Under the pieces are notes generated by a model, which was given only the letters and a program-made list of their open reading frames with translations, ran no database searches and was not told the origin of the DNA. DNA of 64,000 nt, from assembly GCA_964016885.1 (NCBI GenBank), contig OZ024743.1, positions 226,486,001 to 226,550,000 of the forward strand. The letters are read 5' to 3'. Within the stretch, counting starts at the first letter, position 1. Every line of letters begins with the position of its first letter. The stretch comes from Eledone cirrhosa. Lineage: Eukaryota. Both the position numbers and the translations under genes were made by a program. This document shows positions 53,136 to 54,711 of the stretch, one piece after another.

Positions 53136-53467
53136 TGGTTGTACCAATAATTTGAAAAACACACTATTGTTTCTTTGTTTCAGAAACCATGGTAGTGAGA
53201 CGATTATATGACTTAGACAAACTTACTTTAGACGGTCTGACTTATAGTCCCCGAAATTGAGCTTTTGGCATAAGTTTATATATTATTTCTCTGAGTGATA
53301 TTTTATCTATATATTTTATCCATTAATTGATGAGAATGAGATGTCTACGTATTAGAGAAAACAAAAAATTTAAAATTAGTATATATATTTATATATAATA
53401 CATTATAAAGAAAGAAGAAACATTAGATATAAATAAAAAGATATAATATACCTAAATTCCTTCATTA

Positions 53468-53559
53468 TCCTCGACTACGTAGTTTTGTGGCTATTATGCA
53501 AACACATTACATCATAGAGATGCAGTATTTTTGTGAGGTTTGCCGACTTATCAAGAGGA
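53468..53559 (-). ncRNA. Variant hammerhead (U3-A8 core, G12>A damaged)
   Basis: UCCUC-UUGAUAA-GUCGGC..GCCAC-AAAA-CUACGUAG-UC^GAGGA. Confidence 0.6.
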
Positions 53560-54366
53560 AACCTCATTTAGAGTTTCAAAACACGTCCGTAGGACGCGAG
53601 ATAGAATCCCAAAATCGGAGGGGGAACTTATCACGTGATACAGTGGTCAAGAAACAGAGCTAAGCCTCTTACAACCAAGAGAAAAATACCACAAAAGGCG
53701 GAGGGGGTATTTATGTCAAGGCCGTAGAAGAATTGGCTAGGAGGGCGAGAAGTATGAGTAGTGTAAGCTTAACAGCTGTCACTATACTCAGTGGTTACTC
53801 TACCGTAGGGAGTTATAAACAATACAAAGAAATACACAGACACATGCGAATACATACATATACATGCATATATCCACATATATATCTGAATTTGTGTGGT
53901 GCCAACGTCAACCGTTATTGCTCTATGAATAATAGGGACAAAATAATCTGAATGGATTAGATTGATTCAATATCAGAGTTATATAATACATTATAAAGAA
54001 AGAAGAAACATTAGATATAAATAAAAAGATATAATACACCTAAATTCCTTCATTATCCTCGACTACGTAGTTTCATGGCTATTATACAAAAACCTTACAT
54101 CATAGAGATGCAATATTTTTGTGAGGTTTGCCGACTTATCATTTAGAGTTTCAAAACGCGTCCGTAGGAGACGAGATTGTGTCCCGAAAGGCGGAGGGGG
54201 AACTTATCACGTGATACAGCCTCTGTGGTCTTTTGTGGTATTTTTCTCTTGGTTGTAAGAGTCTTAGCTCTGTTTCTTGAACGCTGTATCACGTGATAAG
54301 TTCCCTCTCCGCCTTTCGGGATTCTATCTCGCGTCCTACGGACGTGTTTTGAAACTCTAAATGAGG

Positions 54367-54462
54367 TATCCTCTTGATAAGTCGGCAAACCTCATAAAAA
54401 TACTGCATCTCTATGATGTAATGTTTTTGCATAATAGCCACAAAACTACGTAGTCGAGGATA
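54367..54462 (+). ncRNA. Variant hammerhead (U3-A8 core, G12>A damaged), inverted copy
   Basis: UAUCCUC-UUGAUAA-GUCGGC..GCCAC-AAAA-CUACGUAG-UC^GAGGAUA; the sister copy at about 54061-54080 retains GAAA. Confidence 0.62.
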
Positions 54463-54675
54463 ATGAAGGAATTTAGGTATATTATATATTTTTATAAATA
54501 TCTAATGTTACTTCTTTCTTTATAATGTATTATATAACTCTGATATTGAATCAATCTAATCCATTCAGATTATTTTGTCCCTAATATTCATAGAGCAACA
54601 GCGGTTAAGGTTGGCACCACACAAATTCAGGGATATATGTGGGTATATGCATGTATATGTATGTATTCGCATGTG

Positions 54676-54711
<36 letters not shown>

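Follow-up and report, generated by a model that had tools for sequence, protein, structure and literature searches.

The window analyzed herein is a stretch of 64,000 nucleotides (nt) from Eledone cirrhosa (GenBank assembly GCA_964016885.1, contig OZ024743.1, positions 226,486,001 to 226,550,000 of the forward strand), and the subject of this report is the insertion at positions 53380-54710 of that stretch. It is a single old and damaged copy of a hammerhead element that is non-coding, dispersed, and 590-591 nt long, that is, a retrozyme without long terminal repeats (non-LTR retrozyme). Two arms are joined head to head through a 10-nt insert; one arm ends at S1 and the other ~22 nt short of S2, S1 and S2 being the two sites downstream of the predicted ribozyme cleavage site at which copies of this family end. 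The core, TCCTC TTGATAA, is found at 53548-53559 (-) and 54369-54380 (+), and a palindrome, ACTACGTAGT, recurs at 53474, 54062, and 54445, each time with C GAGGA after it. The insertion is composed as follows.

53380-53391, no strand: left flank, short and TA-rich, a target remnant
53392-54219, minus strand: left arm, ~1.4 unit turns in the ribozyme sense, from unit position ~418 to S1 (position 81 after the cleavage site)
53468-53566, minus strand: hammerhead copy 1, with UUGAUAA at 53548-54, stem I formed by 53555-59 with 53468-72, and G12A at 53486; predicted pseudoknot strand at 53561-66, stem III palindrome at 53474-83, predicted cleavage at 53473/53472
54056-54140, minus strand: hammerhead copy 2, with TGAAA (C11.1U) and a 13-bp deletion near 54140
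54220-54229, no strand: junction insert of 10 nt, CCTCTGTGGT, an imperfect repeat of the right-arm start
54230-54679, plus strand: right (inverted) arm, unit positions 365-590 and then 1-~225, stopping ~22 nt before S2
54362-54460, plus strand: hammerhead copy 3, with UUGAUAA at 54374-80, G12A at 54442, and predicted cleavage at 54455/54456
54537-54679, plus strand: one-sided tail, the sequence from S1 to nearly S2
54680-54710, no strand: right flank, (TA)n, the target microsatellite

All three hammerheads are damaged, and none has a complete type I core. The G12A change likely renders copy 1 inactive, whereas the deletion in copy 2 takes out the pseudoknot strand, the 5' strand of stem I, and U3. 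At position 53486, G is the majority letter in three public runs (contig runs from one sample); these runs also contain the retrozyme family and are uninformative on expression. An initial annotation made from the letters alone had correctly described the inverted copy (given there as 54230-54680 and recovered at 54230-54684), the two copies with CAAAA, and the third with TGAAA and a 13-bp deletion; its conclusion that only the consensus is intact agrees with the damage in every window copy and with GAAA in 136 of 141 family copies. The unit of 588 bp that it reported holds as the spacing at this locus (53392/53980), but the unit of the family is 590-591 nt. Independent CpG decay of the three copies, as it had proposed, is possible, but the G12A common to copies 1 and 3 may instead stem from the template or from conversion. 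What it had taken to be a monomer junction, at 53392 and 53980, is not a ligation point but S1, a preferred insertion end 80 nt past the cleavage site. Because this point is S1, and the extra sequence beyond it is the one-sided tail known from Penelope-like elements (PLEs) (PMC8557442; PMC11167929), reading through it is in itself no evidence of a circle. Nonetheless, the multimeric or circular template that it had deduced survives in another form: with up to 4.9 units per arm in the family, the template was either longer than a unit or circular.

A family of U3-A8 hammerhead elements

Genome-wide counts refer to the 3.0-Gb assembly containing the window. CGAAACTACGTAGTCGAGGA, a 20-mer taken from the motif's 3' half, has 7,620 exact matches, and the full type I core pattern has 6,870, while the reversed 20-mer and the control for the core pattern have 0 each. 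The matches lie on many chromosomes with unrelated flanks, which is the dispersal of a mobile non-LTR retrozyme. Two subfamilies can be distinguished: A, which is older, ~95% alike, and includes the window copy, and B, which is young, 591 nt long, and 96-100% alike. They are 74% alike and share the same hammerhead core. The unit recurs with a period of 591 nt in tandem arrays, and about half of the insertions are inverted. The unit is non-coding, with a longest stop-free stretch of 63-86 codons and no open reading frame (ORF) for a reverse transcriptase (RT) or a GIY-YIG protein; its GC content is 0.37-0.43, and its folding is more stable than that of each of 100 shuffled versions (z -4.45). 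By every genomic property tested, the element is a non-LTR retrozyme.

The initial annotation had proposed a family consensus as a check, and this was built from 141 near-complete copies, taken from 78 fetched loci with selection tolerances of 3 and 5 mismatches. TTGATAA is present in 138 of the 141 copies, GAAA in 136, and a GTC or ATC end in 140, and stem I pairing is retained; on sequence grounds, the consensus is an intact predicted type I U3-A8 hammerhead with CGAAA. Among the first 100 core matches listed, 99 are U3-A8 and one is U3-G8. C3 occurs in only eight cores of the family, all of which retain A8, and none is canonical C3-G8. As annotated, stem I pairs UCCUC with GAGGA, but the outer UA pairs are confined to subfamily A. 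In the predicted fold, stem I is open and has 5 bp, stem II has 5 bp and continues into a long hairpin, stem III is palindromic, and UGAGGU pairs with loop II in a 6-bp pseudoknot. Stem III is predicted to be unstable alone, and -12.9 kcal/mol was computed for its pairing between two copies. The pairing is retained in 98.2% of cells in 10 copies, compared with 33-51% in slid controls, and the hammerhead-constrained fold lies at most 1.1 kcal/mol from the minimum.

An Rfam scan of the window region and of intact copies matched no hammerhead family, and the matches below the gathering score, to microRNA entries and driven by the microsatellite, were rejected. As the UUGAUAA core also falls outside CUGANGA, the expectation that standard searches miss this family was right, and ~18,000 hammerhead motifs of one genome escape both CUGANGA descriptors and Rfam. 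However, the novelty of U3-A8 had been overstated: natural U3-A8 cores, together with pseudoknots and palindromic stem III, were reported earlier (Perreault 2011, PMC3088659), and U3-A8 was described in ~1,300 PLE-type hammerheads of Schistosoma, with circular templates proposed (Cervera and de la Pena 2014, PMC4209133).

Further hammerheads were observed alongside. Other PLE families (L098, L103, L109, and L110) have UUGANAA cores, with GCAA where GAAA is expected in L098 and L103, and the L094 family retains C3-G8. A further C3-G8 hammerhead of type I is repeated at L096:2033, L096:292, and L104:4962; its stem I has 8 bp and its palindrome is TGCGCA. By eye, a separate C3-G8 hammerhead-like motif (ATTTTAT CTGATGA ... 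GAAA TATATA TA ATAGAAT) was seen at 52460-52518 (+) of the window, with similar sequence in L101.

Insertion ends and a candidate partner protein

Insertions of the retrozyme lie in (TA)n tracts, in whose flanks target duplications are unreadable. Two positions after the cleavage site account for their 3' ends, S1 at 80-81 nt and S2 at 245-247 nt, i.e., 165 nt beyond S1. Both sites finish in TA-like letters, which run on into the (TA)n flank. In subfamily B, 44 of the 48 inverted insertions (the double insertion L207 entered as two) combined one S1 end with one S2 end and the remaining four had one end elsewhere, while S1+S1 or S2+S2 never occurred (0/48); the pairing has a p of ~1e-13 against independent choice. 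One-armed B insertions (n = 40) end at S1 in 15 cases, at S2 in 24, and elsewhere in one, and thus both sites are in use. The B loci were taken from the top of the list of pattern hits on C1, some of them being picked for several units or for one haplotype. The head-to-head inverted copy, the tail at one end, and the microsatellite target are all PLE-type marks.

Another conceivable route to inverted arms, hypothesized by Arkhipova (2013, PMC3846280), has an antisense template that self-primes or folds back, in place of two priming events on sense RNA. Seven of the 48 junctions are symmetric within 15 nt, where 2.5 are expected, and fold-back may therefore account for a minority. As a general explanation it is most improbable: the other 41 junctions are asymmetric, a fold-back would come back to the same end site (0/48), and the changes common to all units of an insertion (see below) are A>G in the ribozyme sense. 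At the junctions themselves, an insert at L111:5206-5264 repeats the beginning of one of the arms as ~six copies of an 11-nt unit, and that of the window (54220-54229) is a single imperfect 10-nt repeat; such inserts suggest repeated realignment by the RT or by a repair polymerase.

Roughly 10,600 GIY-YIG candidates were found in the genome, of which 50 loci were inspected. Pfam matched both RT and GIY-YIG domains in eight of 13 long ORFs, most of them with a CX4CX2C linker, which is a mark of Neptune or Nematis (Craig 2021, PMC8557442); assigned by this linker and not by a tree, these elements appear to be Neptune-type. One young autonomous family, N1 (L091, G000:C1:145868500-145878400, with relatives L092, L096, L099, L100, and L102), has a 4,979-nt unit in partial tandem in L091, and its minimal U3-A8 hammerhead, UUGAAAA, has 10,850 exact copies. 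Like the retrozyme, N1 targets (TA)n and has its S1 80-82 nt after the cleavage site; its S2 lies at 145-147, giving a tail of 65 nt. Among 11 inverted pairs of N1, eight are S1+S2, two are S2+other, and one is S2+S2 (at 3.5 kb). In Atlas, PLE clusters from molluscs or other animals make up most neighbors of the N1 protein. Judged from these features, the retrozyme is likely mobilized by a Neptune-type RT/GIY-YIG protein; as to which PLE family supplies it, we infer a partnership with N1 from geometry, because no alignable similarity links N1 to the unit.

A parent PLE was also sought by similarity among the 50 GIY-YIG loci, and none was found there. The unit might be a mere solo pseudo-LTR (pLTR) of an autonomous PLE family outside the sample, an idea for which there is room, with only 50 of ~10,600 candidates inspected, and which the resemblance of Xenopus retrozymes to pLTRs (Li 2026, 10.64898/2026.07.22.740005) would suit. 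Yet the unit, which has no ORF, joins end to end with itself in arrays reaching 4.9 turns, 49 of the 50 loci have no match to it, and the remaining one (L086) is an ordinary inverted insertion, so that we give this explanation hardly any weight.

Other traces of N1-like or mobile sequences were noted. In L123:3620-3730, a small inverted N1 end fragment directly abuts a retrozyme arm at the arm's 5' end, which may be a chimeric insertion or a nested insertion at a TA edge. The window contains diverged inverted N1-like 3' end fragments (70-88% alike) at 33040-33297 and 40258-40925. A tblastn search of the window with 11 PLE proteins gave no match. Its ORFs at 4045-5124 (-) and 32528-32863 (+) resemble what we take to be Tc1/mariner transposase remnants.

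One haplotype per insertion and a proposed circular template

In 73 multi-unit insertions scored at 46 polymorphic sites, 2,066 of 2,096 observations (98.6%) were concordant within the insertion, both arms included, where the family heterozygosity of 0.21 is the disagreement expected for random draws. Per unit, the two arms of an insertion are 0-1 nt apart, compared with a median of 13 between insertions, the exception being one unit of L111 that contains junction sequence. In arrays of at least three units, 67 of the 74 variants limited to some units are singletons; therefore, the arrays look as if they were born at full length. The alternative that arrays and their uniformity arise after insertion, through unequal crossover and gene conversion among tandem and inverted units, was put forward for vertebrate retrozymes (Li 2026, 10.64898/2026.07.22.740005), and the G12A shared by two of the three window copies would agree with it. 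We consider it very unlikely in view of these singletons, of array limits set by S1/S2 and random 5' breaks, and of a sense-strand A>G bias, which DNA processes do not yield.

This bias is well illustrated by L111, in which seven A>G, one C>G, and one C>A rare changes are present in all 7-8 units of both arms; two of these markers are unique to L111 in the assembly, with seven matches each. For a wider count, 100 insertions were used (excluding subfamily A loci, the intermediates L130 and L133, the segmental duplicate L119, the double insertion L207, and overlapping duplicates), and distinct all-unit variants with a frequency of at most 20% were scored in the ribozyme sense. Although the unit has 132 A and 212 T, all-unit variants comprised 27 A>G vs. 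9 T>C (binomial, 2e-5), whereas variants limited to some units comprised 11 A>G vs. 31 T>C (Fisher vs. all-unit, 3e-5; 0.012 to 3e-5 over four frequency cut-offs). The N1 end region, used as a control, had no A>G excess (6 vs. 13); at sites in at least two loci, the counts were 0 vs. 5 for N1 and 21 vs. 12 for the retrozyme (p 0.012). One young sub-haplotype taken alone has too few private all-unit changes for a bias (A>G 2/11). Octopods are a group with heavy RNA editing. A-to-I editing of structured RNA is likely the simplest source of the A>G changes, with ADAR as the presumed enzyme. Identical edits in all units are expected if one monomer is read repeatedly, not if a multimeric transcript is edited unit by unit.

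Our preferred reading, to which we assign a probability of about 0.65, is that the element is a PLE-mobilized retrozyme: both (TA)n strands are nicked, S1 and S2 are primed, and one circular sense monomer is copied repeatedly into two head-to-head arms. A tandem transcript would be cleaved by the hammerhead and ligated into a 590-nt circle, which would be edited and then bound by a PLE dimer. Both strands of the (TA)n would be nicked, with priming from one nick at S1 of the RNA and from the other nick at S2, and strand-displacing synthesis would proceed for 0.1 to 5 turns before the two cDNA ends are joined; the failure of one primer would leave a one-armed copy. Transcription, self-cleavage (by a monomer, or by two molecules paired through their palindromic stem III), circle formation by ligation, and ADAR as the source of the edits are presumed parts of this scheme. 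A fuller version can be offered tentatively, at somewhat less than even odds, in which a PLE dimer performs double-primed rolling-circle reverse transcription on one A-to-I-edited circle, up to five turns in each direction, and the edits are heritable and drive evolution. If this is true, the PLE template would be the sense strand, and retrozyme circles would be genuine transposition intermediates.

Several observations count against this reading. L239, an array of four segments and one of the 73 multi-unit insertions, mixes haplotypes, its units disagreeing at 9 polymorphic sites. In the window, G12A and one private change are common to copy 1 and the inverted copy, and copy 2 differs; CpG decay, conversion, or a mixed template may each explain this discordance, which speaks mildly against a pure single-template model. 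An unedited source copy of L111 was looked for in the assembly and not found. Neither the neighbor preference of ADAR (5' G in 3/27 vs. 28/132, p 0.19) nor its pairing context (18/27 paired vs. 79/132) was significant. Covariation does not rise above shuffles: one pair varies among UA, UG, and CG, and the score was equalled in 66 of 500 shuffles. The older subfamily A (n = 19 loci, chosen by similarity to the window) follows the end rule less well, with 11 S1+S2, 6 S1+other, and 2 S2+S2. The unit has no alignable similarity to N1, to other sampled families, or to any PLE end sampled at the 50 GIY-YIG loci. There is no 5'-truncation hotspot at the predicted cleavage site, where 19 breakpoints (several duplicated) compare with 17 at the +12 control. 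Thousands of copies run intact through this site, which fits a religated circle but equally an uncleaved RNA. Moreover, hammerhead cleavage was dispensable in PAc, the only in vitro PLE system (Frangieh 2024, PMC11167929). A control at position -5 (3 matches) was discarded, since it is biased by the TA flank matching the motif. Three arms that apparently start at the cleavage site were rejected as evidence, because breakpoints there hardly exceed those at the control.

The intact passage through the cleavage site and the missing hotspot would suit a linear, uncleaved, terminally redundant RNA used by the same PLE partner, the RT either jumping back within the molecule or copying a multimer, with a dispensable hammerhead inherited from a PLE end. 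So would the hammerhead mutants that had no effect on PAc insertion (PMC11167929), the partial tandems of the autonomous N1 (4,979-nt unit, L091), the mosaic L239, and the discordant window copy 2. However, a linear multimer should show unit-specific edits and old mutations, while the units agree at 98.6% of polymorphic observations; repeated jumps would require the exact 591-nt register every time; and the hammerhead fold is conserved across subfamilies that are only 74% alike. We therefore hold a linear template to be unlikely, though deserving of attention, and prefer copying from a circular monomer.

How tandem and inverted copies of PLEs are formed, and whether the circles of retrozymes serve as templates, are stated to be open questions (PMC8557442; PMC11167929; PMC7229834; PMC3846280). 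The U3-A8 change and the inverted copy with a one-sided tail, which the initial annotation stressed, are already known for PLEs; apparently new here are the S1+S2 end-pairing rule and the A>G barcode common to all units. Within the literature covered (titles and abstract openings, with most subscription journals and Repbase outside the coverage), the retrozyme family, an obligate S1+S2 rule, and edited haplotypes common to units were not found described. With a rule that can be counted (an S1 end paired with an S2 end), shared changes that serve as a natural barcode, and a candidate partner protein that is both young and abundant, the mechanism of this family can be tested directly in the existing in vitro format of target-primed reverse transcription.

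Comparison with known systems

Retrozyme circular RNAs were shown, and PLEs named as candidates, by Cervera and de la Pena (2020, PMC7229834), and vertebrate retrozymes were linked to pLTRs (Li 2026, 10.64898/2026.07.22.740005). Like these metazoan non-LTR retrozymes, for which the same papers proposed a circular template giving tandem cDNA, the present element consists of tandem units without coding capacity, each with one type I hammerhead, and it has a GC content below 45%, thousands of dispersed copies, and co-resident PLEs. Its unit is 590 nt, as opposed to 170-400 nt as RNA in metazoan retrozymes and 51-972 bp in the Li 2026 preprint. It differs further in its U3-A8 core, its 50-nt loop II with a predicted pseudoknot, and its strict (TA)n target, and it is known here from genomic DNA alone. 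About half of its insertions are inverted with fixed S1+S2 ends, whereas the word "inverted" has 0 occurrences in PMC7229834.

With the endonuclease-positive (EN+) Neptune-type PLEs (PMC8557442; PMC3846280), the element shares partial tandems, an inverted 5'-truncated copy, a tail at one end, a microsatellite target, and a hammerhead near the end. Unlike them, the retrozyme has no ORF, and its tail is 165 nt (65 nt in N1) compared with their 30-40 nt. Moreover, the tail of those elements is called optional, or is said to be at one end "often", while pairing of the two ends is near-obligate in the inverted copies here.

The U3-A8 hammerheads reported previously (PMC3088659; PMC4209133) likewise have C3-G8 replaced by U3-A8 and a palindromic stem III, and a stem I-II pseudoknot is known in type I. 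Those are heterogeneous single minimal motifs, whereas ~7,000 homogeneous motifs lie in tandem retrozyme units and ~11,000 in an autonomous element here.

The Poseidon element PAc of Anolis has two internal RT start sites, and both target strands are extended (Frangieh 2024, PMC11167929). As in our reading of the retrozyme, the tail is delimited by these start sites, which lie downstream of the hammerhead, nicking and extension affect both strands of the target, and a dimer is predicted. The PAc start sites are AC-rich, have no target homology, and show no strand difference in vitro, whereas the retrozyme sites end in TA-like sequence and merge with the (TA)n.
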